Origin: an uncultured delta proteobacterium
GTDB taxonomy: Bacteria > Myxococcota > Myxococcia > SLRQ01
NCBI GenBank assembly: GCA_963727485.1
Contig: CAVSGM010000002.1
Coordinates: 1,536,001-1,600,000 of the forward strand
Length of the DNA stretch: 64,000 nt
Direction of reading: 5' to 3'
Shown here piece after piece: positions 5,554-28,866 of the stretch; the stretch's first letter is position 1; every line of letters begins with the position of its first letter. The translations under genes and the position numbers were made by a program. The notes below the pieces were generated by a model. It worked only from the letters and a program-made list of their open reading frames with translations. It searched no databases and was not told the DNA's origin.

Positions 5554-7359
5554 ATGAAGGCCCTCATCAAGGTCGGCTACGGGTGCAACGACCACTGCAC
5601 CTTCTGCCACACCCTCGACGTCCGCCATCTCGATGACACCGCCGCCGCGGTCGATCGCAAGATCGACCGGGCGGCGGAGCTGGGCCACACCATGGTGGTG
5701 CTCTCCGGCGGGGAGCCCACCATCCGCCCGGAGCTCTACCGGTGGGCGGGGCGCACGGTGCGCCTGGGCCTCGACTTCGGCCTGGTGACCAACGGGCGGC
5801 TGCTGTCCTACCCCGAGGTGGCCGAGCGCCTCCTCGGGCTGCGCCTCAAGTACGCCTACATCTCGCTCCACGGGGGCACCGCCAAGGTCCACAACGCGGT
5901 GGTGCGCTCCCACGCCTTCGAGGAGAGCTTCGGGGCGTTCAGAAACCTCACCGGGCGGGGCGTGGACCTCACGGCCAACTGCGTGGTCACCAAGGTGAAC
6001 CTCCCGCACCTCCGGGCGCTGGTCGACCTGCTGCTCCCCTACCCCGACGTGACGGTGAAGTTCTCCATGGTCGAGGCCAAGGGGGGCGGCGCGAAGCTCT
6101 TCGACAGCATCGTGCCGAGGGTCGCCGAGGTGGCGGCGGGGGTCCGCGACGCCCTGGCCTACGGTGCCGAGCGCGCCGGACCCGAGGGGGCGCACCGGTT
6201 CACCCACGGCGGCATCCCCCTGTGCCTGATGCAGGGCTACGAAGACCGCTTCGACGACCTGCGCACCGACGGCTTCGCCACCATGACCGAGGTCTGGGAG
6301 CCCGACTTCTTCCCCGTCGACGACCTCAACAAGACCCAGCCGCCGCCGTGCCGCGACTGCGGGCTGCGGGCGGCGTGCCCCGGGCTGTTCACCGGCTACC
6401 TCGAGCGCCACGGCCACGGGGAGCTGAAGCCCACGCCCGGCCTGCGGTCCAACTCCTTCAACTACGTGCCCACCAGGCGGCTCACCTGGCTGGTGGGCAC
6501 GCCGTGCCCGGTGCGCCGGGACGGGGTCACCCCCTACGACCGGGGGCGCTCGGTCTTCGTCCGCGAGGGCGAGACCATGGTCCTCTACGAGACCCGCACC
6601 CGGGACTTCGCCGACCCGGAGATCGACGAGGTCAAGCGCCGGCAGGGGCAGGTGTACCTCGACGTCTCCGACAAGCCCGCCCCCGACGACTTCGCCCGCG
6701 ACCTCAAGAAGCTGGCCCGGGTGGACACCTGCAACACCTGCCCGGTGGAGACGCTGTGCGCCGGGTGCTACCACGCGCTCCCCGACGACGTCTTCCGCCG
6801 GGACGACGCGCTCCTGCGCGAGCGCCTCGAAGCCTTGACCGGCGACGTGCTGGACCTCGGCTGCGGGGACGGGCGCTACGCCGACGTCCTGGCGGAGGCG
6901 GTGGCGGCCGGACGGGTGCGCTACCACGGGGTGGACCCGGACGCGGCGGTGCTGGCGGCCGTGGCCGCGCGGCTCCCTGGCGCCAGGACCAGCTGCGCCC
7001 GGGCCGAGGATCTGGCGCTGGCGCCTGCGAGCTACGACCACGTGCTGCTGCTCCAGAGCTACGACCACCTGGTGGAGCCGGATCAGGTGATCCCCCGGCT
7101 GGTGAAGGCCCTGCGCCCGGGTGGTACCCTCCTGGTGGCCGACAACGTGGCCTTCGGCCTCCTGCGCTCCCCGGGGCAGGCGGCGCGCGCCGAGGCGGGG
7201 CCGGCCCGCTTCGAGCACCATCGCAACCATGACGCCGGGGCGGCGGAGCCGCTGTTCGCCGGCCACCCCCTCACCCTTCTGGCCCGCCGCGACGTGGGCC
7301 CGGGAACCAGCAACCAGTGGTTCCTCCACTACCGACGCCAAGAGGAAGCCGCATGCTAG
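5554..7359 (+). CDS. Radical SAM protein (HxsC-like) fused to a C-terminal class I SAM-dependent methyltransferase
   Basis: CNDHCTFC, SGGEPT and TNG motifs; Cys clusters CRDCGLRAACPG and CNTCPVETLCAGC; methyltransferase motif I VLDLGCGDG and 'LRPGG'. Confidence 0.9.
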   Translation: MKALIKVGYGCNDHCTFCHTLDVRHLDDTAAAVDRKIDRAAELGHTMVVLSGGEPTIRPELYRWAGRTVRLGLDFGLVTNGRLLSYPEVAERLLGLRLKYAYISLHGGTAKVHNAVVRSHAFEESFGAFRNLTGRGVDLTANCVVTKVNLPHLRALVDLLLPYPDVTVKFSMVEAKGGGAKLFDSIVPRVAEVAAGVRDALAYGAERAGPEGAHRFTHGGIPLCLMQGYEDRFDDLRTDGFATMTEVWEPDFFPVDDLNKTQPPPCRDCGLRAACPGLFTGYLERHGHGELKPTPGLRSNSFNYVPTRRLTWLVGTPCPVRRDGVTPYDRGRSVFVREGETMVLYETRTRDFADPEIDEVKRRQGQVYLDVSDKPAPDDFARDLKKLARVDTCNTCPVETLCAGCYHALPDDVFRRDDALLRERLEALTGDVLDLGCGDGRYADVLAEAVAAGRVRYHGVDPDAAVLAAVAARLPGARTSCARAEDLALAPASYDHVLLLQSYDHLVEPDQVIPRLVKALRPGGTLLVADNVAFGLLRSPGQAARAEAGPARFEHHRNHDAGAAEPLFAGHPLTLLARRDVGPGTSNQWFLHYRRQEEAAC

Positions 7360-9023
7360 AGGCCGACGCCACCTTCGACGCCGAAGGCCAGAAGATCGCC
7401 GAGAAGGAGTCCGCGGCGCACGAGAAGCGCGCCTGGATCCGGCTGACGAGCTACTGCAACAACCGCTGCACCTTCTGCCTCGACTCGGCGGCCCACAACG
7501 GGACCTACGTGCCCCGGCTCAACATCCGCTCCCAGATCATCGACGGGCGGCGCAAGGGCGCCACGCGGCTGATCCTCTCCGGGGGCGAGCCCACCATCCA
7601 CCCCAACTACGTGGAGTTCATCAAGCTCGGGCGGCAGCTGGGGTACCGGAAGATCCAGACGGTCACCAACGGCCGGCTCTTCTCCTACGACGACTTCATC
7701 GGCAAGTGCCTCGACGCCGGGCTCTCGGAGATCACGTTTTCCATCCACGGCCACAACGCCAAGGTCCACGACGCCCTGGTGGGGGTGAAGGGTGCCTTCG
7801 ACGAGGAGGTCGAGGGGCTGAAGAAGGCGCTGGCCGACGGCCGGCCCATCGTCAACGTCGACGTCTGCCTCAACAAGGGCAACGTCCGGAACCTCCCCGA
7901 GCTCCTCGACATGTTCATGGAGATCGGCGTGCGCGAGTTCGACCTGCTCCACCTCATCCCCTTCGGGCGGGCCTACGAGGAGGGGCGCAACTCGCTGTTC
8001 TACGACATCGACGAGGCGATGCCCGCGATCCAGCACGCCCTCGAGCTCTCCAAGCGCCCGGACGTGCACATCTGGTTCAACCGCTTCCCGCCGCCGTACC
8101 TCGAGGGCCACGAGCACCTGATCCAGGACCCCTACAAGCTCAACGACGAGGTCCGCGGCCGCTACGAGGAGTACGAGCGGTGGCTGGAGCACGGGGTGCC
8201 CCTCTCGTGCCGCGAGCCCGACCGGTGCAACCGCTGCTACCTCCAGAACCTCTGCGACACCCTCGAGGGGAAGATGGCGACGCAGAAGGACGACCGGTTC
8301 GAGCTGATCCGGGTGCACGCGGGCGCCGCCGGCACGGACGTGGAGCTGCCGAAGCTCACCGGCACCTACGCCGGGAGCTGGCTGTGTGCCCCGGACGTGG
8401 CCGCCGCCAAGGCGCTGGCGGGCCGGCTCCCGGGCGACGAGCTCACCCTGGAGCTCGAGGACTACGACGGCCTCGCCGAGGCCCTGGGCGACGGGAAGCT
8501 TTCGGGCAAGAAGCTGGTGCGCGCCTACGCCGCGCGGCCCGAGGACGTCGAGGCGCTGCTCGCCCTCGAGGGCGATCATGAGGTCGTCGCCTGGCTCAAC
8601 CAGGCCAACGTGGCGGCGCTGTTGGAGAAGGGCACCGAGGCGCCGGCGCGCCTCGCCCTCTCGGGCCGGAACTACGAGCGGCTCACCGAGGCGTCCGAGC
8701 AGGACCCGGACCTCAAGGCCTTCTTCGCCGCCTACGACAAGGCGGTGCCGGTGGAGGACGTCCCCGCGTGCATCAGCGGCCGAGCGCCGCGCGCCCGCCC
8801 CGAGGTCCTCGACGCCTCCATGCTCCAGCCCGGTGGGCGCCTGGACATCTACGGCTACGCCAAGCGCTACATCCTCGACCACTACTACACCAAGAGCCAT
8901 AGGTGCCGCGGCTGCGCCCACTTCGAGGGCTGCGCCGGGGCGCACATCAACTGGGTGCGCGCCCACGGGTACCAGACCCTGGTGCCGGTCCCCGGCGAGC
9001 CGGCGAAGCAGGCGGCGGGGTAG
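7353..9023 (+). CDS. Radical SAM protein (HxsC-like) with two Cys-rich auxiliary clusters
   Basis: ATG overlaps the upstream stop. Motifs: CNNRCTFC, SGGEPT, TNG, SIHG; CNRCYLQNLC; C-terminal CRGCAHFEGCAG. Confidence 0.9.
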   Translation: MLEADATFDAEGQKIAEKESAAHEKRAWIRLTSYCNNRCTFCLDSAAHNGTYVPRLNIRSQIIDGRRKGATRLILSGGEPTIHPNYVEFIKLGRQLGYRKIQTVTNGRLFSYDDFIGKCLDAGLSEITFSIHGHNAKVHDALVGVKGAFDEEVEGLKKALADGRPIVNVDVCLNKGNVRNLPELLDMFMEIGVREFDLLHLIPFGRAYEEGRNSLFYDIDEAMPAIQHALELSKRPDVHIWFNRFPPPYLEGHEHLIQDPYKLNDEVRGRYEEYERWLEHGVPLSCREPDRCNRCYLQNLCDTLEGKMATQKDDRFELIRVHAGAAGTDVELPKLTGTYAGSWLCAPDVAAAKALAGRLPGDELTLELEDYDGLAEALGDGKLSGKKLVRAYAARPEDVEALLALEGDHEVVAWLNQANVAALLEKGTEAPARLALSGRNYERLTEASEQDPDLKAFFAAYDKAVPVEDVPACISGRAPRARPEVLDASMLQPGGRLDIYGYAKRYILDHYYTKSHRCRGCAHFEGCAGAHINWVRAHGYQTLVPVPGEPAKQAAG

Positions 9024-9122
9024 GCCTCTTGGCCGCCGCCCGCAGACGCACCAAGGGGGCGCGCGGTGTGTCGCACGCCCCCTCGGGAGGCCGGCCGGGG
9101 CCGGCAGCCGGTAGCGACCCGG

Positions 9123-10017
9123 CTAGTTGATCTCTGATGTAGTAGTTCACCGTGACGTTGCGGGGACGGGTCTCGGCGCCGCCGGCGTCACCGGTGAGCC
9201 CGTGGGGGTCGATGACCGCCGTGCCGCTGGTGCCCGGAGGGGCCGGGAAGATGGCCCCGGGCGTGCCGCCGGCCACCACCACCCCGGAGGCCCCCGGGGA
9301 GACGTTGTGGTGGTGCTGCTTGAACTGGTCCGCCTGGTAGGTCCCCGGCGCCGTGTCGCCGTCGGGGTTGCCCTTGCTGTCGGCGCGCGACCCGTTCTCG
9401 CCCCGGAGGAACACGCCCCGGAGGTCGGGGACGGTGGTGTTCCCGGTGATCTGGGCGTACCGGGAGCTGCTGTAGCTGCCCCCGTCGGCGAGGACCCAGT
9501 CGGGCCCGCGGATGGCGGTGAACTCGCTGGGGGTGAGCATGCTGGCGACGATGTCGCCCACCACGCCCCCGCCGGTGGCGGCGTGGAGGGTGGTGATCCC
9601 GGTGGCGATGGGGTTGGTGGCCAGGATCACGCTCTGGCTGGTGTTGCCCAGCGCCCCGCCCTTGCCCGAGACCTGCACCCACAGGGGCGACCCCGCGGCC
9701 TCGGCGATGCCCGAGGCGCAGGCGGTGTCCTGCATGGTGTGCCGGAACCAGCCGCCGGTGGTGGCGGCGCTGAAGTTGGTGTCGCCGCACACGTGGTTGG
9801 TCGCCGCCTGGTCCTTGAAGATGTTGATCGACAAGGTGTAGGTGTCGTCGGCGATGGGGGTGCCGTTGACGAAGAGCTGGCCCTGGTAGGTCAGCGGCGG
9901 CGGCGTGCTCGAGGGCCCCGCGGCCGAGGCCTGGTAGCCGAACCAGGCCACGCTGGCGAGAAGAGCCCCGGCGAGGAGCATGGGAGCCCGCTTGCTCCAC
10001 GAAGGTGCGCGTCTCAT
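9123..10017 (-). CDS. Secreted protein with a phage tail-collar/tail-fibre-like C-terminal domain (frameshift in the last codons)
   Basis: Signal peptide, then 'LTYQGQL', 'WVLADG...VPDLRGVFLRG' and 'ETRPRNVTVNYYI'. Removing one base at ~9135 restores the usual ...YYIxIN-stop ending (TAG at 9123-9125). ATGA overlap with the upstream gene. Confidence 0.75.
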
Positions 10018-10430: not shown

Positions 10431-10434
10431 CGGT

Positions 10435-11883: not shown

Positions 11884-11917
11884 GCCGTTCGCACCATAGC
11901 AGAAAGAGGTTGGCCGG

Positions 11918-14108
<2,191 letters not shown>

Positions 14109-14188
14109 GTTACGAGGCTTTCCGGGGGCGGTCAAAGCGCCTTTTGACGCCTTGGCGCCGGTGGCCGGGCCCGTCTATGCTGGCGCCG

Positions 14189-15435
14189 ATGACCCCTCCT
14201 GCCCGGGCCGGCCGCGCCGGCGCTGCGACCCCGCGACATCACCCTCCCCGAGCCCGGATCCACCACCGCCCGGGAGGTCCTCTCCCGGGCCATCCGGGCG
14301 GTCCTCGGCGACCTGGTGCGCCTCCCGCCGTCGATGTGCCTGACCCCGGCCGGGCGCCGGAGCGCCGAGGGGCTCCAGGCCGCCGTCCGGGCCGCGGCGC
14401 GCCGGCACCCCGGGGCCCTGGCGAGCCTGGTCCGGGACCCCACCGCCGGCGCCCTGGTCCGGGTGCTCCGGGAGCGGCGCGACGGCGAGGGGGATCCGGA
14501 ACGGATCGATCCCCTCTACGGCGAGCTCGCCTGCGTCCTCGGCCTGGGGCTGGCCCGGGCCGGCGCCCTCGAGGCGCCGCTCACCTGCGCCCCGGCCCCG
14601 GCGCGGATCCTCTCCCTGACCCTGCGCCTCTCGCTGCCGCTCCCCGAGGGGACCCGGGCGGTGACCTTCGATCCCACCGGCGCCGTCACCGCCGAGACCG
14701 GCGCCGGCCCGGTGCCGGTGGACCTGTCGACGGCCACCGACCCCTACCACCCCCTCGACGCCGACAGCGTGCTGGCCACCGCCGACAACAACCCCCTGGC
14801 GATGTTCGAGCTCCACCCCGACAAGTCGGGCAACGCCCTGGACCTCGGGGGCCGGGACCCGGCCGAGTGGGTGGCGACGCTCCGGGAGGCCCTCGACCTG
14901 GTCGAGGCCCACCTCCCCGACGCTCCGGGAGGAGATGCGCCTCTTCGTCCGGCAGGTGGTCCCGGTGGGCTATGACGCCGAGCGCCACCTCTCGGCGAGC
15001 TACCAGGAGGCCATCGGCACCCTCTACCTGACCCTCCACCCCCAGCTGATGACCATGACCGAGGCGCTCATCCACGAGTTCAGCCACAACAAGCTCGGCG
15101 CGCTGCTGGAGCTGGACCCGCTGTTGGAGAACGCCTTCCACCCCCTCTACAAGAGCCCGGTGCGCCCGGACCCGAGGCCCCTGCACGGGGTGCTCCTCGC
15201 GGTCCACGCCTTCCAGCCGGTGGCGCGGCTCTACGAGCGGATGATCGAGGCGGACCACCCGCGGGCCCGGTCGGCGGACTTCCGCCGGCGCTACCAGCAG
15301 ATCCTCGCCACCAACCGCGAGGGCGCCGAGACCGTGCTCACCCACGGCGTGCCCACCGAGGTGGGGGCGGCGGTCCTCGACGAGATCCGCCGCTGGGACG
15401 ACCACTATCGGGGCGCCATCTCGTCCCAGCCGTAG
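14189..15435 (+). CDS. HEXXH-motif peptide-modification protein (alphaKG-HExxH hydroxylase-like), frameshifts ~14215 and ~14920
   Basis: Joined from ORFs 14316..14975 and 14935..15435. 'EALIHEFSHNKL' and 'YKSPVRPDPRPLHGVLLAVHAF' match the HEXXH and SPWRxDPRP signatures of rSAM-associated HEXXH proteins. Confidence 0.85.
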
Positions 15436-16457
15436 CGGGCGAGGTAGTTCTTCCACACCCCCTCGCACACGGCGTCGTAGCGGCAGGTGGCGCACTCGGG
15501 GCGCTTGGCGCGCTCCACCGCGTCGAGGTCGGACCGGCGCACCTCGAGGAGCTCGGCGTCGCCCCCCTCGGCGAGCGCGTGGGCGCTGGCGGCGTTCGCC
15601 GGGGCCGCGGGATCGGCGACCTCGTAGTGCTTGTAGCGCTCCACGTAGCCCCGGTTGCGATCGGGGATCCCCTCGGTGACGCACAGGGGGATGTCGACGA
15701 GGTAGGCCTGGAGGTCGTCGTCGCCGGCGGCGGCGGCCTCGGCGCAGAAGGCCCGGAACCGGTCGGCGATGTCGGTGTACCGGGGGAAGAGCTGGTCGAA
15801 GTAGGTGTTCGCCCGGCCGTTGGCCTGCATCACGTTGAACACCACCTGGTCGACGCCGTGGCCCCGGAGGAACCGGTAGATGTCGGCGAAGTGCTCGAGG
15901 TTGCGCCGGGTGACCACCGTGGAGGTGTGGAGGCTGACCCCGTGGCGCTTGAGCCTCGCCACGTTGTCCAGGCCCTTCACCGTCTGGACGAAGGCGCCGG
16001 GGGTGCGCACCAGGCCGTCGTGGAGCTTCTTGGTGTGCCCGTGGATGGACACGTAGAAGAAGTTCATCCCCGCCTTCACCAAGGTGGCCAGGTAGGGCAG
16101 GTGCGAGAGGCGCCGGCCGTTGGTCATCACGCTGATGCGCCGGTAGCCGAGCGCCCGGGCCCAGGTGCAGTACTGGGGCAGGCCCCGGACCAGGGTGGGC
16201 TCACCGGAGGTGAAGCAGACCTCCTCGGCGCCGGCGTTGGCCTCGAGGATGTGGCGGATCCGCTCGGGGGTGAGCGCCCCGTTGACCTCCTCCCGGAGCG
16301 CGCGGTCCTCCTCCATGCAGAAGATGCAGTTGTTGTTGCACACGGGCCCGAGGTTGATGTGGACCCGCTCCACGCGCCCCTCGATGCGGCCCGCCACCGA
16401 CGCCTCGGGGGCGAGGGGGACGGGGGCCTGCTGGAGGATGGGGAGGCGCTCGGCCAT
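15405..16457 (-). CDS. Radical SAM protein (HxsC-like)
   Basis: CNNNCIFC, TSGEPT, TNG, SIHG and DIPLC motifs; C-terminal KRPECATCRYDAVCEG. Overlaps the HEXXH gene tail-to-tail by 31 nt. Confidence 0.9.
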   Translation of the reverse strand: MAERLPILQQAPVPLAPEASVAGRIEGRVERVHINLGPVCNNNCIFCMEEDRALREEVNGALTPERIRHILEANAGAEEVCFTSGEPTLVRGLPQYCTWARALGYRRISVMTNGRRLSHLPYLATLVKAGMNFFYVSIHGHTKKLHDGLVRTPGAFVQTVKGLDNVARLKRHGVSLHTSTVVTRRNLEHFADIYRFLRGHGVDQVVFNVMQANGRANTYFDQLFPRYTDIADRFRAFCAEAAAAGDDDLQAYLVDIPLCVTEGIPDRNRGYVERYKHYEVADPAAPANAASAHALAEGGDAELLEVRRSDLDAVERAKRPECATCRYDAVCEGVWKNYLARYGWDEMAPR

Positions 16458-16598: not shown

Positions 16599-17180
16599 AT
16601 GAAGAAGGTCGATCGTCGCGACGCCCTGAAGTTCCTCGGTCTTGGCATCCTGGCCGCCGGGAGCGCTCCGCTCCTCGGCGCCCGGCGCGCCGCCGCCGAG
16701 CCCCGGCTCCCCCGGGCCGGCCGCGGGACGCCCAAGGCCACCGTCTCCCGGGACGGCGCCGCCCCGGCGGTCCGCGCTCCCCTCGACACCCCGGTGCCCG
16801 CCGACCCCACCTCGGCCCTGGCGCCGCTGGGCGTCGGCAGCCGCCTCGCCGGCTCGACCATCCTCCGCGTCGACGGCCCCGACCACGGCGCCATCCACGT
16901 GGACCTGCGGGCGGCCGACGGCCACACCTTCCGGGTGGAGATCTGCCGCCACGACGCCGGGGGCCCGGCGCCGGTGACCCGCACCCGTCACTACGACCTC
17001 TTCCTCGCCAACGGCGGCCGCGGGGACAAGCGCACCGACCGGTCCGAGGGCCTGGCGGTCCTGGGGCTCACCGAGGCGCTGCGCCACAACGAGGCGCGCG
17101 CCCGGAAGCTGCCGGTGATGACCATGCGCCGCCGGTGGGCGAGCTTCCGGCCCACCGAGCTCTCCCGCTACGACGGGTAG
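16599..17180 (+). CDS. Tat-exported hypothetical protein
   Basis: GGAGG RBS; twin-arginine signal MKKVDRRDALKFLGLGILAAG...AAA. First gene of the operon with two rSAM genes. Confidence 0.8.
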   Translation: MKKVDRRDALKFLGLGILAAGSAPLLGARRAAAEPRLPRAGRGTPKATVSRDGAAPAVRAPLDTPVPADPTSALAPLGVGSRLAGSTILRVDGPDHGAIHVDLRAADGHTFRVEICRHDAGGPAPVTRTRHYDLFLANGGRGDKRTDRSEGLAVLGLTEALRHNEARARKLPVMTMRRRWASFRPTELSRYDG

Positions 17181-17183
17181 CGC

Positions 17184-18170
17184 TTGAGCGCATCCGCCGC
17201 GGTACCCGACCCTCCGGTCTCGCCGGGGGGTCGCTTGCGCCTGCACCTGGGCTACCGGTGCAACAACCGCTGCGTGTTCTGCGCCCAGGGGGACCTGCGC
17301 CGAGGCGAGGCCGCGCCCCCGGATGACGCCACGGTGGCCGCCCGCCTCGCCGCCGGCCGGGCCGCGGGCCTCGAGGCGGTGGCCTTCGTGGGCGGCGAGC
17401 CCACCGTCCACGACGGGCTCCCCGGGTGGATCGCCGAGGCCCGGCGCCAGGGCTTCACCTCGGTGCTCGTCCAGACCAATGGCCGGCGGCTGGCCTACCC
17501 CGGCTACGCCGCCGCCCTCGCCGAGGCGGGCCTGGAGGCGGTGGAGGTGTCCCTCCACGGGCCCACCGAGGCGATCCACGGCTACCACACCCGGGTTCCC
17601 GGGAGCTTCGCCCACACGGCGCGGGGCCTCGGCGCCGCCCGGTCCGCGGGCCTCACGCTGGCCCTGACCTGCGTGTCTCACCCGCTCGAACTTCCGCCAC
17701 CTCCCGGAAATGGTCCGCCTCGCCGGCCGCGCCCGGGCCGCGGCCCTCCACCTGGCCCTGCCCCGGGTCCGGGGGCAGGCGGCGACCGGCTTCGATCGGG
17801 TGGTGCCCCGCCTCGGCCTCCTGCGCCCCTACCTCGCCGCCGCCGCCCGCCTCGCCTGCGACCCTGCGCGTCCCCCTGGTCCTCGGGGGCCTGCCGCTCT
17901 GCGCCGCCGCCGCCGCCCCGGGGGCGGTGCGCCTCGAGGTCGCCGACGCCGGGGGCGCCTTCGGCCCCGGCTGCGACGGCTGCCCGGTGCGGGGCGCCTG
18001 CCCCGGCGTCGACCCCGCCTACGCCGCCGTCCACGGCACCGCCGAGCTCACCCCCGTGGCCGACGGCCACCGAGCCCGCCTCCCCGGCGCTGGCCCGGCA
18101 CTTCGCCGGCACCGGCCCCATGGCCGATGCGGCCGAGGGGCCTGCGGTACACTCGGCCGAAGGCTCCTGA
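17184..18170 (+). CDS. Radical SAM protein (HxsC-like), several frameshifts (~17676, ~17855, ~18070)
   Basis: CNNRCVFC, GGEPT, QTNG and SLHG motifs. The alternate frames give 'GLPLC' and 'CDGCPVRGACPG'. Confidence 0.8.
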   Translation: MSASAAVPDPPVSPGGRLRLHLGYRCNNRCVFCAQGDLRRGEAAPPDDATVAARLAAGRAAGLEAVAFVGGEPTVHDGLPGWIAEARRQGFTSVLVQTNGRRLAYPGYAAALAEAGLEAVEVSLHGPTEAIHGYHTRVPGSFAHTARGLGAARSAGLTLALTCVSHPLELPPPPGNGPPRRPRPGRGPPPGPAPGPGAGGDRLRSGGAPPRPPAPLPRRRRPPRLRPCASPWSSGACRSAPPPPPRGRCASRSPTPGAPSAPAATAARCGAPAPASTPPTPPSTAPPSSPPWPTATEPASPALARHFAGTGPMADAAEGPAVHSAEGS

Positions 18171-19401
18171 TGGCGAACATCGGCTACATCCAGGTCGTCC
18201 GGCACTGCAACCACTTCTGCGGGTTCTGCTCCAACCCCACCACCCCCTACAGCCACACCTTCGAGTCGATGAAGGTCCTGGTGGACGACTTCGTGGCCCG
18301 GGGCTACTTCGGGGTGATCCTCACCGGCGGCGAGCCCAGCCTCCACCCGGACCTCCCGCGGATCTGCGCCTACGCCCGGGAGCCGGCCTCCACGTGCGGA
18401 TGATCACCAACGGCTCGCGGATGGCCGACCCGGCGTTCGCCCGGGAGATGGCCGACGCCGGGCTCCAGCTCGCCCACGTCTCGGTGTACTCGGTGCGCCC
18501 CGAGGTCGAGGCGCGCCTGCGCGGGATCCCCGGGACCCTGCCCAAGGCCTTCGCCGCGGTGGACAACCTCGTCGCCAGCGGCGTCGAGGTGAACATCAAC
18601 TGCGTCATCAACAAGCTCAACGCCGACCACCTCGACGAGAACATCCGCTACTGGACCGCCCACCACCCGGCGATCCGCCACTTCGTGTGGAACAACCTCG
18701 ACCCCTCGATGGGCCGCGCGGAGGTGAACCAGGACCAGTTCACCCCCCGGCTCGCCGACTTCGAGGTGTCGCTGGCCCGGGCGCTCTCGCTGCTCCAGAA
18801 GACCGGGCGCACCTTCCGGGTGGAGAAGGTGCCGCTTTGCTACATGGTCGACTTCGCCTGGGCGAGCACCGAGACCCGGAAGATCGTCAAGGGTGAGGAG
18901 CGCATCGTCCACTTCCTCGACGTGAAGCAGACCGTGCGCCAGACCCACTGGGAGCACGTCTACAGCGAGGCCTGCGACGTCTGCTCGCTGCGGACCATCT
19001 GCGGCGGGCTCTTCGACCGGGGCGACGCCTACGACCCCGCCGAGCTCCACCCGGTGTTCGTGGACCGGGACCAGGTGGTGCGCCGGATCATCGAGGACGC
19101 CGGGGACCCGAGCTACGCCCTCCGGGACCTCGAGGCCTGGCGCGACGACTTCGACCGACGCCTCGCCGACGCCCGGACCGAGGCGGGGAGCGCGCACGCG
19201 CCGGCCGGGGACCTGCCGCCACCCTCGATGCGCGATCCCGGGGCCCCGGCGGTGGGCCAGATCACCGAGGAGAGCCGCAAGCGCTTCGAGGCCAAGCGCC
19301 GCGCCGAGGGGCGCCGGGCGGAGAAGGTCGGGGTGCGCCTCGAGCGCCTGGCGATCCAGGCGCCCGAGCTCGCCGAGGGCGACGGCGAGGCGGGCGACTG
19401 A
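18170..19401 (+). CDS. Radical SAM protein (HxsC-like), frameshift ~18382
   Basis: ATG overlaps the upstream [23 protein letters not shown] and TGGEPS continue in the next frame as ITNG, VPLC and [12 protein letters not shown]. Confidence 0.85.
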
Positions 19402-19485
19402 GGCCGCGCCGCCCGGATGCACGTCGGCCGGACCGCCTTGGGGGCAGCCCGGCCGAAGGGGTTGCGGGGTCGGCTGCGGGGTCGG

Positions 19486-19803
19486 CTACCAGGACCCGTG
19501 GGACCCGTGCGAGCCGTGGGACCCGTGCGACCCATGCGAGCCGTGCGAGCCGTGGGACCCGTGCGAGCCGTGGGACCCGTGGGAGCCGTGCGACCCGTGG
19601 GAGCCGTGCGAGCCGTGGGAGCCGTGCGAGCCGTGGGAGCCGTGCGACCCGTGGGAGACGTGCTGCGCCAGCAGGCGCCCGCCACCCGGGACCTCACCCG
19701 CCTCGGTCGCGGACGCGGCCTCCTTGGACGAATCCTTCAGCTCGTGCTCCAGCTCGGAGAGCAAACCCTTGGAGCGCTTCTTGTACTTGGGAATCTTTGC
19801 CAT
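19486..19803 (-). CDS. hxsA: His-Xaa-Ser repeat precursor peptide (HxsA-type): 47-aa leader + HVS + (HGS)18 + W
   Basis: The translation is direct from the sequence. It lies 25 nt downstream of the HxsB-type rSAM on the same strand, with an AAGGGG RBS-like sequence upstream. The leader ends LLAQ before the first HxS. Confidence 0.92.
19492..19662 (-). repeat. 9-bp coding tandem repeat (19 His-Xaa-Ser codon triplets)
   Basis: Units are CA(C/T)-GG(C/G)-TC(C/G), varying only at synonymous positions apart from the first (HVS) unit. Confidence 0.95.
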
Positions 19804-19828
19804 GAACGGCCCCTTGACGTTCCAGCCC

Positions 19829-21356
19829 CTACGACTCTGCCGGCGACTCTACCACGTCGTCTGCAGGGTCGGAAGTGTGAAGGAAGTGGTCCCGGGGACG
19901 GTTGGTGGTCCACCTACGGAAGACCTCCAGGGTCCCGGGGTCGGCCTCGCCGAGCTTCCCGAAGAGGTAGTCCTGGATGCCCTTGATCGCGTGGCACCAG
20001 GCGCTGTCGCGCATCCGACCGCCCAGGCTCCCCTGGTGCCGGTAGTTGTACTCCGGGGAGATCCCACAGAACGGGTGGTAGGCGCAGTTCACGCAGTCGG
20101 GGCTCGAGTCGAGGATCGAGGCGAGGGTCACCGCCCGGGTGGTCTCGTGCTCCATGAGCGCCTGGTAGCTCGAGGTGTCCACGTGGCCGATGTGGAACAT
20201 GTCGTCCCCCATCTCGTGGAGCATCCGGCCCTCGTCGCTGGTGAAGATGAGCCCGTCGTAGTTGTAGGCGAGCCCGCCGATGCCGGCGCCCGCAGGGGTT
20301 GCGCAGATCGAGGAAGTTCGGGTCCTCGCCGCCGAGGATCTTGGTGAGGAGGATGGCGGCGTAGCGCTCCAGGATCTGGGTGCCCTGGAGGTTGAGCTGC
20401 ACCATGTAGTCGACCGCCTCGGCGTAGAAGTCGAGGTAGGCCCGGCGGTCGTAGTCGACCTTCTGCCCGGTCTTGGCGGCGAAGCCGAAGGGATCGACCG
20501 GGCGGAGGAAGAGGGCCCGGCACCCGAGCTCGACGTAGGTGTCGACAATCTCGCGCGGGTACTTCAGCGCCTCCTTGGTGGTCGTGAGCAGCGCCTCCAC
20601 GTGGTAGAGCGTGGTGTCGAGGCCGCGCTCGGCGTAGGCCTCGTTGATGCGCTTGATCCACTTGGTGGCATGCGAGAAGGCGTCGCCGCCGGGGAGGATC
20701 CGCTGCTTGTTGTGCAGGTGCTTGGGCCCGTCCACCGAGGTGCACATCTGCACCTTGTTGTCGAGGAGGTAGTCGAGCTTCTCCTCGGTCATCAGCGACA
20801 TGTTGGTCACCAGGGTGAACTCGAGGCTCTTGCCGAGGGTCTCGTTCTTCTTCTTGGCGTACTCGATGATGTGCTGCATCACCGGGTAGTTCACCAACGG
20901 CTCGCCGCCCTGGAACTCGAGGGTGACCCAGGGGCTGGTGGTCTCGAAGGCGAGATCCACCATCTTCTCCGCGGTCTCCTTGGACATGTCGGTCTGCGTC
21001 GCCTCCATGCCGGCGCGGCTGGCGTGGCAGTAGACGCAGGTCTCGTTGCACCGCAGGGTGACCACGGCGATGTGGAGGTTGGGGCCGTAGTGCAGGAAGC
21101 GCTGGCGGGCGGCCAGCCGCTGGGCCAGGTCGTCCACGTCGACCTCGGCCCGGAGGAAGTTCTTCTCCTTGAGGGCCTGATAGGTCTCGGAGGTCGGGTC
21201 CAGGCTCCCGTCCACGAAGGCCCGGAACTCCGCGGGCTCGAGGAGGTGGAACTGGCCCACCTGGTTGGTGACCAGGTAGCGCTCCCCCACCACCCGGTAG
21301 CGGAAGAAGGCGGGGAACGCCGGGTCGATCTGCTCCACCTGGGCGAGCTGCCTCAC
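19829..21356 (-). CDS. hxsB: His-Xaa-Ser system radical SAM/SPASM maturase HxsB (frameshift ~20292)
   Basis: '[22 protein letters not shown]', 'LEFQGGEPL', '[26 protein letters not shown]' and SPASM-like [11 protein letters not shown]...WC. It sits between HxsD-like genes and the HxS precursor. GTG overlaps the upstream stop. Confidence 0.85.
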
Positions 21357-21574
21357 TGGCCCCCCCGCTTCTCTTCGATGGTGAGCGCCAGGGCGTAGTT
21401 GCCGAACTCGCCGGCGACCTCGTCCTCGTCGGCGTCGTCCTTGGCGGTCAAGGCAATCTCGAAGTAGGGCATCTTCTGGGTGGAGGCGATCTCGGCGACC
21501 TCGTCGAAGACCTCGGCGGTGGTCTCGAGGGCGGCGGCCGAGTAGGCCTGGTGGTGGAAGCGCAGGTGCCGCAC
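21353..21574 (-). CDS. Small HxsD-like protein
   Basis: '[20 protein letters not shown]...GEFGNYAL' parallels the neighbouring HxsD ([19 protein letters not shown]...GEFANELL). Confidence 0.7.
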
Positions 21575-21577
21575 CGG

Positions 21578-22102
21578 TCAGCCCCCCGCCGCCTGGTCGT
21601 CGCCACCGTCCGCCGGGGGCGGGCCCTTGGGCGCACCCTCCTTGGGGGCCTCGGCCTCGCCCTGCTTGCCGTACTTCTCCTCCCAGCTCATGGCGATGCC
21701 GAGGGGATCCTCGAAGGCGTCGTCGGAGAAGTCCATGTCGCCGGCGAGGTCGTCGAGGCTGGCGGTGCCGGTGGCCCCGGCGAGCGCCTGGGCGGCCACC
21801 GCCTCGATGATCGGCTTGTTGTACTCGGTGATCTCCCGGCGCCAGGCCTGGGACAGGAGCTCGTTGGCGAACTCCCCGGCGAGCGCCGAGAGGTCGTCGG
21901 CGGAGAGGGCCTCGCGCCCCCGGAGCACCACCTGCACGTGGGTCTCGTCGGGCACGTCGAGGAGGACGTAGCACCGGTCGATGAACACGTAGGCGGCGCC
22001 GTAGATGGCGTCGAGGGGGTAGAGGCTGCGCTCGAAGCGCACCTGCACCCGGTTGTCGTCGGCTTCGACCTGGATCTGGTCGAGCCCCTGGTCCTTGTCC
22101 AC
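21578..22102 (-). CDS. hxsD: His-Xaa-Ser system protein HxsD with acidic C-terminal extension
   Basis: '[19 protein letters not shown]' and '[15 protein letters not shown]' resemble the HxsD family (LLNDYxLRE-like motif). First gene of the hxsD-hxsD'-hxsB-hxsA operon. Confidence 0.8.
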
Positions 22103-22228
22103 GTCTGCCCCCTTCGGGTCCGGACGGATCGGTTCCGCGAAACGAAGGCCGATGATGGCGGATGGGTGCCCGGCAGATCAAGCGTGGGAAGTACCCGAGA
22201 GCCGGGAAGGGGACTACGCTGCCCCGCC

Positions 22229-24028
22229 ATGGCCGCCTCGCCCCCCTCGCCCCTGCGCCGCCTCTGGCGCCAGGCCGCCGCCCACCGCCGGCAGGTGGCC
22301 CTGGCGACCGGCTGCTCGATCCTCAACAAGGCCTTCGACCTGGCGCCCCCGGTGCTCATCGGGATGGCGGTGGACATCGTGGTCCGCCGGCAGGGGAGCC
22401 TCCTGGCCCACCTGGGCGTCGCGGCCCCCCGGGACCAGATCCTGGTTCTGGCCGGGCTCACCTTCGTCATCTGGGCCCTGGAGAGCCTCTTCGAGTACCT
22501 CTACGCCATCCTCTGGCGAAACCTCGCCCAGACCGTGCAGCACGAGCTGCGCCTCGAGGCCTACGCCCGGGTCCAGAGCCTGGAGCTCGCCTACTTCGAG
22601 GACCGGTCCACCGGCGGGCTGATGGCGATCCTCAACGACGACGTCAACCAGCTCGAGCGCTTCCTCGACGGGGGCGCCAACGACCTGCTCCAGGTGGCCA
22701 CCACCGTGGTCCTGGTGGGCGTCGCCTTCTTCACCCTGGCCCCGAACATCGCCTGGCTGGCGTTCCTCCCGATCCCGGTGATCCTCTGGGGGTCGTTCCG
22801 GTTCCAGCGGCGCATCGCCCCGCGCTACGCCGCGGTCCGCGCCCAGGTCGGGGTCCTCTCGGCCCACCTCGCCGGGAGCCTCGGGGGCATCGCCACCATC
22901 AAGAGCTTCACCACCGAGGCCCGGGAGGTGGCGCGCCTCGCCGCCGCCTCGGACCGCTACCAGGACGTCAACCGCGACGCCATCCGCCTCTCCTCCGCCT
23001 TCAGCCCCCTCATCCGCGTGGTGATCCTGGTCGGCTTCACCGCCACCCTGGTCTACGGCGGCTTCGAGGCCCTCGCCGGGACGCTGGCCGTGGGCGCCTA
23101 CAGCGTCATGGTCTTCCTCACCCAGCGCCTGCTCTGGCCGCTGACCCGCCTGGGGCAGACCTTCGACCTCTACCAGCGGGCCATGGCCTCCACCACCCGG
23201 ATCCTCGACCTGGTGGACACCGAGCCGGCCATCGTCTCCGGGGCCTCGCGCCTGCCGGTGGACGCGGTGCGCGGCGCGGTGCGCTTCGACGACCTCTGCT
23301 TCGCCTACCACCCGGACGCGCCGGTCCTCGAGCACCTCGACCTCGAGGTCCCCGCCGGGGAGACGGTGGCGGTGGTGGGGGCCACCGGCTCCGGGAAGAC
23401 CACCCTGGTCAAGCTCCTCCTGCGCTTCTACGAGGCGTCCGGCGGGCGGATCACCGTCGACGGCCGCGACGTGCGGGACCTCGACCTCGGCGACCTCCGC
23501 CGCGCGGTGGGCCTGGTGAGCCAGGACGTGTTCCTCTTCCACGGCACCGTCCGCGAGAACATCGCCTACGCCCGCCCCGACGCCTCCGAGGCCGAGATCG
23601 TGCGGGCGGCCCGGATCGCCGAGGCCCACGCCTTCATCGAGGCGCTCCCCGACGGCTACGACACGGTGGTCGGCGAGCGGGGGCAGAAGCTCTCCGGGGG
23701 CCAGCGCCAACGGATCTCCATCGCCCGGGCGGTCCTCAAGGACCCGCCGATCCTGGTCCTCGACGAGGCCACCAGCGCCGTGGACAACGAGACCGAGGCG
23801 GCGATCCAGCGCTCGCTCGCCCGCCTCTCGGTGGGCCGGACCACCCTGGTCATCGCCCACCGCCTCTCGACCATCCGCCACGCCCACCGGATCGCGGTCC
23901 TCGCCGGCGGCCGCCTGGTGGAGTCGGGGACCCACGACGAGCTCCTCGACCGGGACGGGATCTACGCCTCGCTGTGGAAGGTGCAGACCGGCGAGGTCGT
24001 CCCCGAGGTCGAGGCGGCCGCGGGGTAG
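22229..24028 (+). CDS. ABC exporter, fused permease + ATPase (MsbA/MdlB-like)
   Basis: Six-TM domain; Walker A GATGSGKT, signature LSGGQRQR, Walker B LVLDEATS and H-loop IAHRLST. No N-terminal C39 peptidase domain. Confidence 0.95.
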
Positions 24029-24131
24029 GCACGCGGCAGACGCGCCCTGACTGAGGGCGGCCGGCGGGGGGAGCCCGGGCGCCGGTCGATTCTCCATATC
24101 CGGGTTGGGATCCGGCTGATATGCTCCTAGT

Positions 24132-24773: not shown

Positions 24774-24785
24774 TCCGGCTTCGGG

Positions 24786-25040
24786 TCAGTCGGTGTAGGC
24801 CACCGCGACCCAGCGCCCGTACTTCTTCTTGAAAACGGCGACGTAGCCGTGTCCGCCGAGGTCGGCGATGGCCACCCAGGCGTCCTTCAGGTCCAGCTTG
24901 CCGAGGCGGGCCGGCGGCGGGCCGTACTGCTGGACCATGGCGTCGGCCGGGAGCGTCTTCATCCCGTAGAGGGGCAGGCGGGAGAAGTCCTTGCCCTGGA
25001 AGAGCTCGGTGAGCAACTCGTCGACGGTGGGGCCGTCGCC
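24786..25040 (-). pseudogene. 3' fragment of an unknown gene abutting the IS91-like remnant
   Basis: An unrelated, codon-typical tail (DELLTELFQGKDFSRLPLYG...GRWVAVAYTD) follows the transposase C-terminus in frame and has no start of its own. Confidence 0.45.
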
Positions 25041-25756
25041 GTCAAGTCCGGTGGGCGGAGCCCGAGCGTGGGCCAGGCCTCGTCGGCGCGGCACCGTGGG
25101 CAAGCCCAGGTGATCGAGGATACGGCGGACCACCGCGGGCTCCATGATCACCGCGACGACCTCCACCCTGCCTTGGCACTCGGGGCAGGTGGTGAGGTCG
25201 TGCCCGAAGACGCGCTTCAGCAGGTCGGCCCAGGGTATCCGGCGCTGGCGGACGTCGCTGGGCGGCTCCCAAGGCTGCCCACCGCTCCGGCTCGAGGTCG
25301 ATTGCTCGGGGTTCTGGCCCTTCGGGGGGACGAAGGCGGCCAGCCGGCGCAGGAGGTCGACCGGATCGAGTAGCAGCTGGCTGCGACCATCGCGCAGCGG
25401 CTTTCGCAGGCGATAGTAGACCTCGCCCCGCGTGCCCTCCTCCAGGCGGTGCTCGGCGAAGGGAGGCCGCAGACCGTAGCGCAGGATCCGCTCGAGGCCG
25501 GCCCGGTCATTGGGGTTGAAGGCGACGAGCTGCTCTCCGATGGACCGGCCCAGCTCGGCTGCGAGAACACGCCGTCGGGGAGGAAGCTGTGGAAGTGCAA
25601 GTTGAGGTTGAGTGCGTCGCCGAAGCGCTGGATGCAGGTGATGGAGCCAGCGAGGGGCCGTGCCACCCCGTTGCGACGGGCGCGACGGCAAAGCCAGGCG
25701 AAGAGCACCCGCTGGAAGACTCCGAGGACAGGCGTGACCAGCTCGGGACGCGTCAC
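25041..25756 (-). mobile_element. Degenerate IS91-family (Y2/HUH) transposase remnant
   Basis: HUH motif 'IQRFGDALNLNLHFHSFLPDGVF', 'LERILRYGLRPPFA', 'WADLLKRVFGHD..CPECQGRVEVVAVI..VRRILDHLGLP'. Frameshifted, internally shortened and lacking the N-terminal Zn-binding domain. Confidence 0.8.
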
Positions 25757-26223
25757 CAGAAGGTCGCCAGGTGCCCGCGCACCAAGCGGTGGAAGAGACC
25801 CGAGGCCGGGGTGCGCGGTTGATGGGGGCGCTGCGAGGCCTGGAGAGACGGGGCGAGCAAGGGTCGCCGTGGGCTCGACTCGCCCTGGACGACGTCCGCG
25901 ATCCGGCGATGACGGCCCCAGGGAGCCACCGATGACGCGGCTGCGCTCACTCCGAGGGCTGGGCCGCGGGCGACCGCCACCGCGCTAGATGGTCCAGGAC
26001 GGATCCGAGTCACAGACCCCGGCCTGGTACACCGCCGCCACGATGCGCCCGGAGAGGTGGGCGGCGCGAACGCGGAAGGCGCGCTCGCCGAGGAGCAGGT
26101 GGCTCCCGAAGCCCACCAGGCCCAGGAAGACGATGCTCGCCACGGTCCCGCCCGCGGGCGCCGAGCCGGTCGGCCACTGGACCGTGTAGCGCCAGTTGCC
26201 CAGCAGGACCTTGGGATAGCCGT

Positions 26224-28530
26224 CTAGATTGCGGCGTTGACGTCGTCCTCGGTGAACTCCCACGGCAGCTCCTTGGAGGCCTTCAGCTCGTAGAACCCGC
26301 CGCAGAAGATCTTGTGGGGGCACGCCTCGCACTCCTCGTGATGGCTGCGCTGCGCCTTGAGGTACTCGAAGAGGTTCACGTCGGTGTTGTTCACGAACAC
26401 CATGTGCCGCTCGAGCTTGAGCAGGTCGCCCATCATGAACCGCTCGTAGCCGGGCATGAAGCAGAACGGGAGGTTGATGACCTGGAACTTCATCTTCCCC
26501 TCCCACCGGTCGATGACCGACATGGCCACCTTCGCCGCCGCGGCGGTGTCGGGGTTGACGAACACCGTGGCCCGGCCGAAGGGGGTGAGGAACTGGAGGT
26601 TCATCCACCGCAGCCCCAGGTCCCAGGCGAGCTCGGCCATGGCCGGCAGGTGGGCGTAGTTGCTCTTGGTGACGGTGACGTTCATCCCCAGCTCGACCCC
26701 CAGGGGCCGGTGCTTCACCGCGTGGCGGACCCCGGCGCAGGTCTGCTCGAAGGCCTCGGCGACGCCCACGTTCTGGGCGTGGGTCCTCGCGTCGTGGCCG
26801 TGGATCGAGAAGAGCAGGGTGGTCAGCCCCGAGCGCGTAAGGCTCCGGGCGAAGTCCTCGTAGACCAGGCGCCGGCCGTTGGTGGTGACGTTGATGCGCC
26901 GGTAGCCCAGGGCCCGGGCGTGGCGCACCAGGGGGATGATCTCCTCGTAGAGGGTGGGCTCGCCGCCGTCGAAGTCGACGAGATCGAGGCCCTGGGCCCG
27001 GTAGCGGGCGAGGATCTTCTTCTGGTTCTCGAAGCTCCCGTCGAGCTGGGTCCGGGTGCCCACCGCACAGAAGGTGCAGCGGTTGTTGCACCGGTAGGTG
27101 ACGTTCATGATCACCTTCCGCGGCCCGCGGCCCGCCTCCAGGCGCCGGTCGAAGGTCCACTTGAAGCGGCGGAGCTCCTCGGCGGTGAAGTCCTCGGAGG
27201 TGGTCACCGGGGTGTGCTGGAAGAGCGGCCCGAAGTCGTCGACCACCGGCAGGGGGGTCTTCGCCGCGGCGGCGGCGGTGTCGGCGAGGCGGGTGCCCGG
27301 CAGGGGCGTGGCGAACTGCACCCCGGGCCAGGCGCCGTAGGCCTCGTGGAGGTGCAGGGCCCAGTCGAGGGTGGTGTTGATCTGGGCCTTGGTCTCCCCG
27401 GGCATCCCGATGATGAAGTGGACCAGGGTGGGGATCCCGCGCGCGGCGGCGCCGGCGACCGTCTCCTCGACCCGGGCGAGGTCGAGGTTCTTGCCCACCA
27501 CCCGGTCGACCACGCCCTGGTCGCCGCTCTCGGCGGAGACCGAGAGGGTGGCCACGTGGCCGGCCATGGCGTCGAGGTGCGCCTCGGCCACCCAGTCGGC
27601 GCGCATCCCGTTGGGGAAGTCGAAGGCGAGGTCGTGGGGGGCGAGGGCGGCGAGGAGGGCCTCGAAGTGGCCCGGGTCGACGTTGACCATCTCGTCGAGG
27701 ACGTCGAGGCGGGTGGCGCCGTGCTCCCGGACCAGGGCGTCGACCGCCCGCGCCAGGTAGGCGGCGTCGTACCGGCGCTGGGTCTTCTTCTTCCCCTGGC
27801 GGCCGGGGTTCGAGGAGCAGTGGGCGCACCGGTAGGGGCAGCCCCGGCTGGAGACCATCGGCAGGGTCCGCCCGTCCACCGGGAAGGCCCAGGGCCCGCG
27901 ACCCAGGCCCGCGACCACCCGGGCGAGGAAGGCGTCCCGGGCGGGCAGATCGACCAGGTCCCAGGCGGGCAGCGGCAGGGCCGAGAGGGCGTCCACCTCG
28001 CCGCCGACCACGGTCTCGGGGACCTCGGGGCGGCCGCCGTCGAGGAGGCGCTGGAGGAGGGGCACCAGGGCCTCCTCGGCCTCGTACTTGAGGAGGGCGT
28101 CGACCTCGGGGTAGCTCGCCAGGGTCCCCTGGCCCGGCGCCTCCACGTAGTGCTGCCCGCTCTGGTAGAGGTCGGCGAGGACCACCGGCGCCTCCGGGAG
28201 GCGCGCCCGGAGACCCTCGAGGAGGGCCCCGAGGAGGGGATCGCGCCGGGGCGGGCGGTGGAACGGCGTGAGGGTGACCACCACCGCGTCGGGGGTGCCG
28301 AGGGCCCCGAGGACCTCGTCGAGGCCCGCGCCGAGGCGGACCCTGTCGCCGTCGAGGTCCTCGAGGGTGCTCCCGGGGAGGGCGAAGGCGTCGAGGAGGC
28401 GCACCTCGAGGCCCGCCTCCCGGATCACCGCCGCCGCCTGCGCCCCGGCGAGGTCGCAGTGGTAGGGGTAGTCGATGAAGTCCCGGGAGAGCCGGAGCGG
28501 CGGCTGGACGACGAGGACCCGAGGGGTCAT
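26224..28530 (-). CDS. Double radical SAM fusion: B12-binding-type (class B-like) rSAM + HxsC-like rSAM
   Basis: N-terminal 'VLVVQPP' B12-binding-like domain; 'SSRGCPYRCAHC', 'PNGMRAD', 'FIIGMPGET' and 'TPLPGT'. The second domain has 'CNNRCTFC', 'DGGEPT', 'TTNG', 'LPFC' and 'CEACPHKIFCGG'. One uninterrupted ORF. Confidence 0.9.
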   Translation of the reverse strand: MTPRVLVVQPPLRLSRDFIDYPYHCDLAGAQAAAVIREAGLEVRLLDAFALPGSTLEDLDGDRVRLGAGLDEVLGALGTPDAVVVTLTPFHRPPRRDPLLGALLEGLRARLPEAPVVLADLYQSGQHYVEAPGQGTLASYPEVDALLKYEAEEALVPLLQRLLDGGRPEVPETVVGGEVDALSALPLPAWDLVDLPARDAFLARVVAGLGRGPWAFPVDGRTLPMVSSRGCPYRCAHCSSNPGRQGKKKTQRRYDAAYLARAVDALVREHGATRLDVLDEMVNVDPGHFEALLAALAPHDLAFDFPNGMRADWVAEAHLDAMAGHVATLSVSAESGDQGVVDRVVGKNLDLARVEETVAGAAARGIPTLVHFIIGMPGETKAQINTTLDWALHLHEAYGAWPGVQFATPLPGTRLADTAAAAAKTPLPVVDDFGPLFQHTPVTTSEDFTAEELRRFKWTFDRRLEAGRGPRKVIMNVTYRCNNRCTFCAVGTRTQLDGSFENQKKILARYRAQGLDLVDFDGGEPTLYEEIIPLVRHARALGYRRINVTTNGRRLVYEDFARSLTRSGLTTLLFSIHGHDARTHAQNVGVAEAFEQTCAGVRHAVKHRPLGVELGMNVTVTKSNYAHLPAMAELAWDLGLRWMNLQFLTPFGRATVFVNPDTAAAAKVAMSVIDRWEGKMKFQVINLPFCFMPGYERFMMGDLLKLERHMVFVNNTDVNLFEYLKAQRSHHEECEACPHKIFCGGFYELKASKELPWEFTEDDVNAAI

Positions 28531-28566
28531 GACGCCCGTTGTACCATCTGCCATCCTGGCTCCGCC

Positions 28567-28866
28567 ATGAGCGACCCCACGCCCCGCGACCGTCTCGCCC
28601 GCCTCATCCGCCCTCTGCCCGTGGACGGACCGTTCCTCAAGCAGTGGCGGGTGGGCGCCGTCGAGGGCGACGCCGAGGGGCTGAAGGTGACCCTCGACCA
28701 CCCGACCTACGGCCCGGTGGCCCTCGAGATCGCCCGGGCCTCCGGCGCCCCGGCCTTCGCCCGGACCAACCACTTCGAGGTGCGCCATGGCGCCGGCGGG
28801 CTCACCGAGCGGCAGCAGGACGCGGTGCGGACCCTGGTCCGGGCGATCCTCGCAAACGGGATGTGA
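28567..28866 (+). CDS. Small hypothetical protein (99 aa)
   Basis: Divergent from the double rSAM gene, with typical GC3 codon usage. MSDPTPRDRLARLIRPLPVDG...FARTNHFEVRHG...AILANGM. Confidence 0.7.
   Translation: MSDPTPRDRLARLIRPLPVDGPFLKQWRVGAVEGDAEGLKVTLDHPTYGPVALEIARASGAPAFARTNHFEVRHGAGGLTERQQDAVRTLVRAILANGM

Follow-up and report, generated by a model that had tools for sequence, protein, structure and literature searches.

A candidate Tat-borne export partner for a conserved HxsA4-type His-Xaa-Ser peptide system in Myxococcota

The His-Xaa-Ser (HXS) system of Escherichia coli is a four-gene antiphage locus (HxsD-HxsB-HxsC-HxsA) that acts from the periplasm to stop phage DNA entering (Li et al., Nat Commun 2026, PMC13128918). 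According to the accessible portions of that paper, the peptide HxsA is periplasmic and gains 8 Da on SHRSS, read as +C/-4H. More than 99.8% of HXS systems have four genes, 99.7% lie in Pseudomonadota, and the same portions leave HxsA processing and export open; the accessible part of PMC9062424 gives HxsB and HxsC a mention only. Here we analyse a related locus in 64,000 nucleotides of an uncultured delta proteobacterium of the phylum Myxococcota. This stretch, hereafter the window, is G000:C2:1536001-1600000, where G000 is the source genome (93% complete, 73% GC). A first-pass annotation, made from the letters alone, had described positions 5554-28866 as a hyper-expanded His-Xaa-Ser system of a kind with no characterised product, a phrase that the antiphage activity and +8 Da modification of the E. 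coli system have outdated. We find a real, conserved and bioinformatically half-named variant of the HXS kind, built around a precursor called HxsA4 that lacks a signal peptide and may be exported in trans by a separate protein with a twin-arginine translocation (Tat) signal.

Other described chemistries and export routes offer points of comparison, each drawn from the accessible part of its source. In the triceptide minviopeptin, a His-Ala-Ser motif is crosslinked to a cyclophane with loss of 2 Da (PMC12912966), and the 19 His-x-Ser units of the window fit the triceptide aromatic-X-X motif, which includes His-Ala-Ser. The window differs in its 19 contiguous motifs and its many more enzymes, which fall far below the cyclophane-synthase cut-offs: all of the three-residue cyclophane-forming enzyme (3-CyFE) radical S-adenosylmethionine (SAM)/SPASM models GrrM/OscB, AmcB and YhhB scored far too low, GrrM/OscB at 37-44 bits against 310. 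Because of these scores, the system would work like triceptides without being a member. HEXXH enzymes act on a cyclophane as hydroxylases of His and Asp (PMC12636437, which gives ChlH as the alpha-ketoglutarate (aKG)-HExxH case), and the window likewise pairs radical SAM enzymes with an HEXXH hydroxylase. In Tat hitchhiking, a signal-less partner rides on an RR-bearing protein, as when PaoA carries PaoBC (PMC4273604). The cases described there, HybOC and PaoABC, are cofactor-enzyme subunits, whereas here the cargo would be a ribosomal peptide that bears modifications and has a carrier of its own. Literature searches on HxsA4, HxsC4, their accessions and the repeat, and on Tat hitchhiking of peptides made ribosomally and then modified post-translationally (RiPPs) and myxobacterial His-rich RiPPs, returned nothing relevant from a corpus covering few subscription papers. 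A Tat partner of signal-less precursors is likewise absent from the literature searched.

Compared with the antiphage system (models TIGR03976-03979), the window shares HxsB and HxsD that pass the model cut-offs, a His-x-Ser substrate, HxsC-like enzymes and a predicted periplasmic product. It differs in its precursor, which is 105 residues long, ends in HGSW, and lacks the signal peptide, peptidoglycan-binding domain and basic repeats. The order D-B-C-A is not kept; the genes run HxsD, HxsD-like, HxsB, HxsA4, with the other enzymes scattered over both strands. About 20 radical SAM domains stand here against two in the E. coli system as its accessible account describes it, and the Tat protein is separate. 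No TIGR03979-type HxsA was matched in the source genome (93% complete), and the best genome-wide match to HxsC TIGR03977 reached 95 bits against a cut-off of 267.9. A PADLOC 2023 scan left the HXS models unmatched and gave generic viperin and ABC matches only. What does pass in the window is the NCBIfam trio HxsA4 (NF038313), HxsC4 (NF038332) and HxsD-like (NF038315). These are annotation models only, and no model claims the other HxsC-like groups or the Tat protein above cut-off. Three parts of a system first put forward as a candidate undescribed one had NCBIfam names already.

The HxsA4 precursor (19486..19803, minus strand) scores 120.5 bits against a cut-off of 55, bearing out the single HxS-repeat peptide first noticed in the sequence. 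It consists of a 47-residue leader followed by HVS, (HGS)18 and W, so that the 19 His-x-Ser units contain 19 His and zero Lys or Arg. The leader carries an LPxFxK...LS-type motif, taken from an alignment of 30 precursors, and no hydrophobic signal (maximum 13-residue hydropathy 0.23). Across genomes, precursors occur with or without an N-terminal signal, and the leader motif is common to both. A Cys/Pro-rich product from the opposite strand of the repeat is ruled out, as HxsA4 is the conserved frame.

Precursors vary among genomes. The first repeat (window position 19660) reads His-Val-Ser in the family of the window; most other precursors open with His-Cys-Ser, and those of Binatia-titled records with His-Met-Ser. 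These differences may mark distinct chemistry at the start of the core. Very long precursors, with 35 to 64 His-x-Ser units, occur at loci L009 (genome G163), L142 and L156, and tandem precursor pairs in G163, L158 and L162. Named records with the peptide are mostly Myxococcota. One record (L155) is titled Klebsiella pneumoniae; it is a 3.5-Mb metagenome-assembled genome, and its title is probably wrong, the precursor type coming otherwise from Myxococcota and Deltaproteobacteria records. Two pattern matches in viral contigs were both opposite-strand Gly/Met repeats and were rejected as precursors.

Overlooked in the first-pass annotation, an unannotated 193-residue protein (16599..17180, plus strand) is the candidate partner of this precursor. 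It comprises DRRDALKFLGLG and an alpha/beta domain of about 120 residues. By a motif and hydropathy rule, it bears a twin-arginine motif, DRRDALKFLGLGILAAG, with a hydrophobic stretch (hydropathy 1.75); the motif is conserved in the family, and the source genome encodes TatC (222 bits). Pfam and NCBIfam left the domain unmatched. Its structural model is confident (predicted local distance difference test score, pLDDT, 91), and fold searches count neither for a known fold nor for a new one: Foldseek returned none at E <= 0.001, a wide search peaked at Z 5.5, and the Atlas search gave none at 0.9. A profile search recovered 919 clusters at 50% identity, against one protein by a word-indexed homologue search. 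The RR motif and hydrophobic stretch, by a simple rule, are present in 127 of the 150 best library matches.

The family follows the signal-less precursors. In a set of 401 genomes from the phylum, with 11 candidates scored per genome (11 to 88 overall), strong matches appeared in 14 genomes, all HxsA4-positive. Leaders were readable in 29 genomes of this set: the family, with RR motif, is present in 11 of the 11 with signal-less precursors, whereas 15 of the 18 with signal-bearing precursors have no match and three have a homologue. A pattern scan of GTDB found at least 122 stretches, 80 of them with flanks, for which the family was sought by whole-genome search. Among the matches listed, it was found in 66 of the 80 genomes, comprising 59 of 61 signal-less, one of 13 signal-bearing and six of six with unreadable leaders. 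Where the family gene lay in the flank (23 listed loci), an RR motif was seen by eye in 22 copies, and six stood directly upstream of the precursor. One genome, G439, has three intact tandem units of Tat protein plus precursor and a fourth with the domain deleted, and G411 has two diverged units.

The same domain is also built into enzymes. Seven genomes, chosen for long reading frames, carry it inside fusions of an HxsD-like domain, a radical SAM domain and a ferredoxin, and in one case it lies inside a glycosyltransferase-like protein. At loci L260-L266 and L268, we observed an undescribed fusion in the order HxsD-like, carrier domain, HxsC-like radical SAM and C-terminal 2Fe-2S ferredoxin, by its predicted domains an enzyme with its own electron donor. 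A complex prediction of the 16599 domain with the precursor scored 0.00, which bears on binding neither way.

Systems of the HxsA4 type normally show this radical SAM expansion, and the source genome is not alone in having it. HxsA4 scored above the NF038313 cut-off in 31 of the 401 genomes. All five scored HxsC4-like matches were filled in 34 genomes, against at most three in every other, and 30 of the 31 HxsA4-scoring genomes fall among these 34; the rest are two with sub-cut-off precursors and two fragmented genomes in which none was found. What was first called "hyper-expanded" is ordinary for the type. The remaining HxsA4 match of the 31, in G032, was a false 481-residue frame with 0 radical SAM domains in 80 kb and was dropped from region counts; G196, which is unpublished, contributes to the counts over the 401 genomes and to nothing else, and its sequence supports no claim.

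Around the precursors of nine relatives we counted 12, 5, 10, 17, 17, 6 (in 48 kb), 20, 15 and 11 radical SAM domains. Orthologues of the genes at 5554 and 7353 and of HxsD occur in all nine regions, those of the two-domain gene at 26224 in seven, those of 18170 and HxsB in six each, and those of HxsC4 in five. In a tree of 109 of 130 domains, with 21 short or low-scoring ones omitted, including the window's frameshifted 18170 domain, clades follow gene rather than genome, and the window's domains group with other HxsA4 clusters. Gene 7353 has orthologues in eight of eight HxsA4 genomes (E <= 6e-93) against 0 of 72 others (best 2e-23). These results support the first proposal that the extra HxsC-like enzymes belong with the peptide; a check for closest relatives in loci lacking HxS peptides, run for gene 7353, did not refute it. 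NifH-like and neighbouring genes also recur near the cluster in the G002 and G046 regions and in G332.

Within 5554-28866, a six-frame scan agrees with the original count of seven radical SAM genes with eight domains. The CxxxCxxC motifs lie at 5584, 7455, 16340(-), 17259, 18206, 21050(-), 27090(-) and 27840(-); 100 base shuffles of the interval gave 0.57 on average and 4 at most. Genes were delimited by hand with a codon model. Besides the precursor, five parts exceed NCBIfam cut-offs: HxsB, a radical SAM/SPASM maturase (19829..21356, minus; TIGR03978, 388 + 149 bits in two frames against 370, with one indel near 20290); an HxsD-like protein (21353..21574, minus; NF038315, 58.4 against 41); HxsD (21578..22102, minus; TIGR03976, 60.8 against 50); HxsC4, a radical SAM enzyme (15405..16457, minus; NF038332, 546.7 against 500); and an aKG-HExxH-type hydroxylase (14180..15435, plus; TIGR04267, 92.3 against 40; HEFSH at 15073). 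The HxsB, the HxsD pair and the HEXXH enzyme of the earlier reading are thus all present. The other five radical SAM domains match HxsC4/HxsC or cobalamin-type families below cut-off only.

Two of the HxsC-like genes are core members. The first (5554..7359, plus) is a fusion to a C-terminal class I methyltransferase domain (Pfam Radical_SAM and Methyltransf_11), which accounts for the methyltransferase seen earlier, and its orthologues are 34-58% identical; the second (7353..9023, plus) has two Cys-rich tails. The HxsC-like gene at 17184..18170 (plus; indels near 17680, 17857 and 18063) forms its own clade across genomes, and its neighbour at 18170..19401 (plus; indel near 18385) has orthologues of 46-64% identity. 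The gene at 26224..28530 (minus) joins a cobalamin-type methylase-like N half to an HxsC-like C half, with sub-cut-off matches to B12-type families and HxsC4 and orthologues of 37-59%.

The hydroxylase is an accessory member, because its close orthologues are few and all tied to HxsA4 genomes or loci. Those at 51-68% identity occur in two of 400 other genomes, both HxsA4-positive and on other contigs; matches in 18 further genomes are only 24-35% identical. In six of the 80 GTDB loci listed, orthologues of 52-73% are no further than 10 kb from the precursor, and in Nannocystis the gene stands among the enzyme genes. Full-length relatives have about 393 residues, against the window's roughly 400-residue gene, which has indels near 14200 and 14915.

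All four of the HEXXH, 17184, 18170 and HxsB genes are broken by indels. Frame switches run through the whole source genome (15/175, 10/184 and 8/51 segments). Short-read contigs of near-identical strains have one base fewer at 14198/14201, 14915, 17857 and 18063, and have gaps over the HxsB (one) and 18170 breaks. We read the splits as assembly errors because such switches are common across the assembly and the short-read contigs differ at several of these sites; true pseudogenisation is rejected on the same grounds.

Combining these observations, we propose an HxsA4-type maturation system with export in trans, to which we give a probability of about 0.58. The HxsA4 precursor has a conserved leader motif and lacks a signal peptide. 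HxsB, HxsD with the HxsD-like protein, and a constant complement of HxsC-like enzymes, every one of them an old orthologous group, co-occur with it and would process the (HGS)n core. By precedent, the likeliest chemistry would be three-residue crosslinks from His to Ser (-2 Da each) plus one-carbon additions; the methyltransferase and cobalamin-type domains would add methyls, and the accessory HEXXH enzyme would beta-hydroxylate His. The 16599 protein would then bind the matured peptide through its domain of about 120 residues and carry it through TatABC as a hitchhiker, while enzymes with the fused domain would use it to hold their substrate. The product would act as a polyvalent envelope effector in the periplasm. 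A block to phage DNA entry, by analogy with the E. coli system, is possible at somewhat short of even odds, and function is the weakest step of the explanation. A broader statement, which we hold tentatively and at slightly worse than an even chance, is that the 16599 family is an unrecognised peptide-recognition domain, found inside enzymes and as a dedicated one-to-one Tat carrier of signal-less, multiply crosslinked poly(His-Gly-Ser) to the periplasm, feeding a broad antiphage barrier that about 20 radical SAM domains would build.

Several points weigh against this model. Support for peptide binding and export is genomic. Three genomes whose precursors bear a Tat signal (G231, G243 and G358) also have the domain; the G231 copy lacks a leading RR, and those of G243 and G358, truncated where their contigs end, may have one. 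Two signal-less genomes (L121 and L160) have no family match. Several whole-genome family matches were counted without reading the N-terminus, and few candidates (11 to 88) were scored per genome. Fisher values overstate the association because kin are not independent and six of the 80 loci come from genomes that also belong to the 401 set. The near-identical tandem units of G439 might in part be repeats created by the assembly. No leader protease, transporter or metal gene recurred within 10 kb of the 80 loci (simple gene caller; families in at least three loci). The core, unlike E. coli HxsA, has neither Lys/Arg nor a peptidoglycan-binding domain, and every enzyme here falls short of the canonical HxsC cut-off.

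The product could instead be a metal-binding scaffold for Cu, Ni or Zn, its poly-His array made rigid by the enzymes, which would be compatible with carrier export. This role is the less likely one but stays a close rival, because the core lacks the basic residues and wall anchor of the E. coli relative. Its 19 His without basic residues suit such a role, as does the His-Cys-Ser that opens the core in most relatives, and exported copper-chelating RiPPs, the bufferins, exist in the literature as far as it was accessible. Against it, no metal-transport or regulator family recurs within 10 kb of the 80 loci, and the only tested relative is antiphage in the accessible account (PMC13128918).

Alternatively, the Tat protein might be exported alone as a periplasmic receptor, anchor or immunity partner, the peptide leaving otherwise or staying inside. 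Membrane-anchored or lipoprotein-like paralogues without a Tat signal occur in G231 and L110-L112, and the domain resembles, at the weakest level, the C-domain of the periplasmic MucB/RseB (Z 5.1; Atlas score 0.86). We consider this improbable, as it leaves unexplained both the family's absence from 12 of 13 (GTDB, among the matches listed) and 15 of 18 signal-bearing genomes and the domain's presence inside cytoplasmic enzymes. We think it similarly improbable that only HxsB, HxsC4 and HxsD act on the peptide while most HxsC-like enzymes bypass HxsA4 and instead synthesise a small cofactor or modify a surface polymer. A three-residue repeat does have few sites for about 20 enzyme domains, and UbiA-like, halogenase-like, epimerase and membrane glycosyltransferase-like genes are present in the cluster's upstream arm; set against this are the strict co-occurrence of the enzymes with HxsA4 and the fusion of HxsD-like and carrier domains to such enzymes. 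That the MsbA-type ABC transporter (22229..24028, plus), divergent from and adjoining hxsD, is a classical RiPP exporter, as the first-pass annotation had it, is very improbable: the gene has no homologue in any of the nine relative regions, no close one in the 80 GTDB loci listed, and has a transposase remnant next to it, at a place taken in G283 by a radical SAM gene. Its membership of the system is unsupported, and by its distribution it probably lies outside. In G283, that radical SAM gene has hxsD on one side and the two-domain gene on the other, the position occupied in the source genome by the ABC gene, a laminin-B-domain protein and, at 24786-25900, a degraded Y2_Tnp (IS91-like) transposase adjoining both.

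The cluster modelled here as an HxsA4 maturation system has other boundaries than those first drawn. Within 5554-28866, by the tests run, 9100-14135 (about 5 kb) and 22229-25900 hold no genes of the radical SAM system, and the cluster runs about 20 kb upstream of the window. This upstream arm (G000:C2:1515600-1535800) has 8 further radical SAM domains, two flavin halogenase/monooxygenase-like genes, and UbiA-like, epimerase, metallo-beta-lactamase-fold and membrane genes, bringing the count to 16 radical SAM domains in 47 kb between C2:1516485 and 1563840. The G348 cluster has counterparts of the halogenase-like and double radical SAM genes, and halogenation may therefore be an accessory step. 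Elsewhere in the genome, a second, intact HxsB (G000:C1:650837-653223; 530 bits) is coupled to an HxsC-like gene with no precursor nearby; orthologues of that HxsC-like gene sit in HxsA4 clusters of other genomes. A satellite (G000:C2:395400-404700) holds a double HxsC-like gene (68% identical to a G348 cluster gene), a cobalamin-type radical SAM gene, an acyl carrier protein and hydrolases. The C1 HxsB, its HxsC-like neighbour and the C2:399060 gene have their best neighbourhood matches within other genomes' clusters, at 54-68%, as does the HxsC-like gene C11:944011, at 42%. Because the C1, C2 and C11 genes match other genomes' clusters, we assign about 20 of the 45 radical SAM-like domains in the genome to the system.

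Other genes are interspersed. A Ser/Thr kinase, a PEGA protein and a large surface protein occupy 10504-14135 and 2406-5537, inside the cluster; the tail of the large surface protein is, we presume, like a myxobacterial sorting signal. Homologues of these genes lie near the cluster in G128 and G332, and the kinase also in G163. They are probably an inherited neighbourhood and may have a regulatory role. A 104-residue protein (28551..28866, plus) slightly resembles the carrier domain (hhalign E 0.0028, probability 11%) and was missed by a larger profile, and we treat it as a lead only. A further cobalamin-type radical SAM gene 7 kb downstream (35846-37189) lacks a homologue in those HxsA4 neighbourhoods that were tested and is probably unrelated.

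With a simpler repeat as substrate, the HxsA4 type uses roughly tenfold more radical SAM domains than the E. coli system, and is therefore a large untapped source of His/Ser chemistry. Its signal-less and signal-bearing precursors form a natural experiment on export, for which the unannotated 16599 family is now named as a specific candidate for the missing part. The cultured Nannocystis exedens DSM 71 and Chondromyces apiculatus DSM 436 both carry the precursor, the Tat protein and the enzymes.

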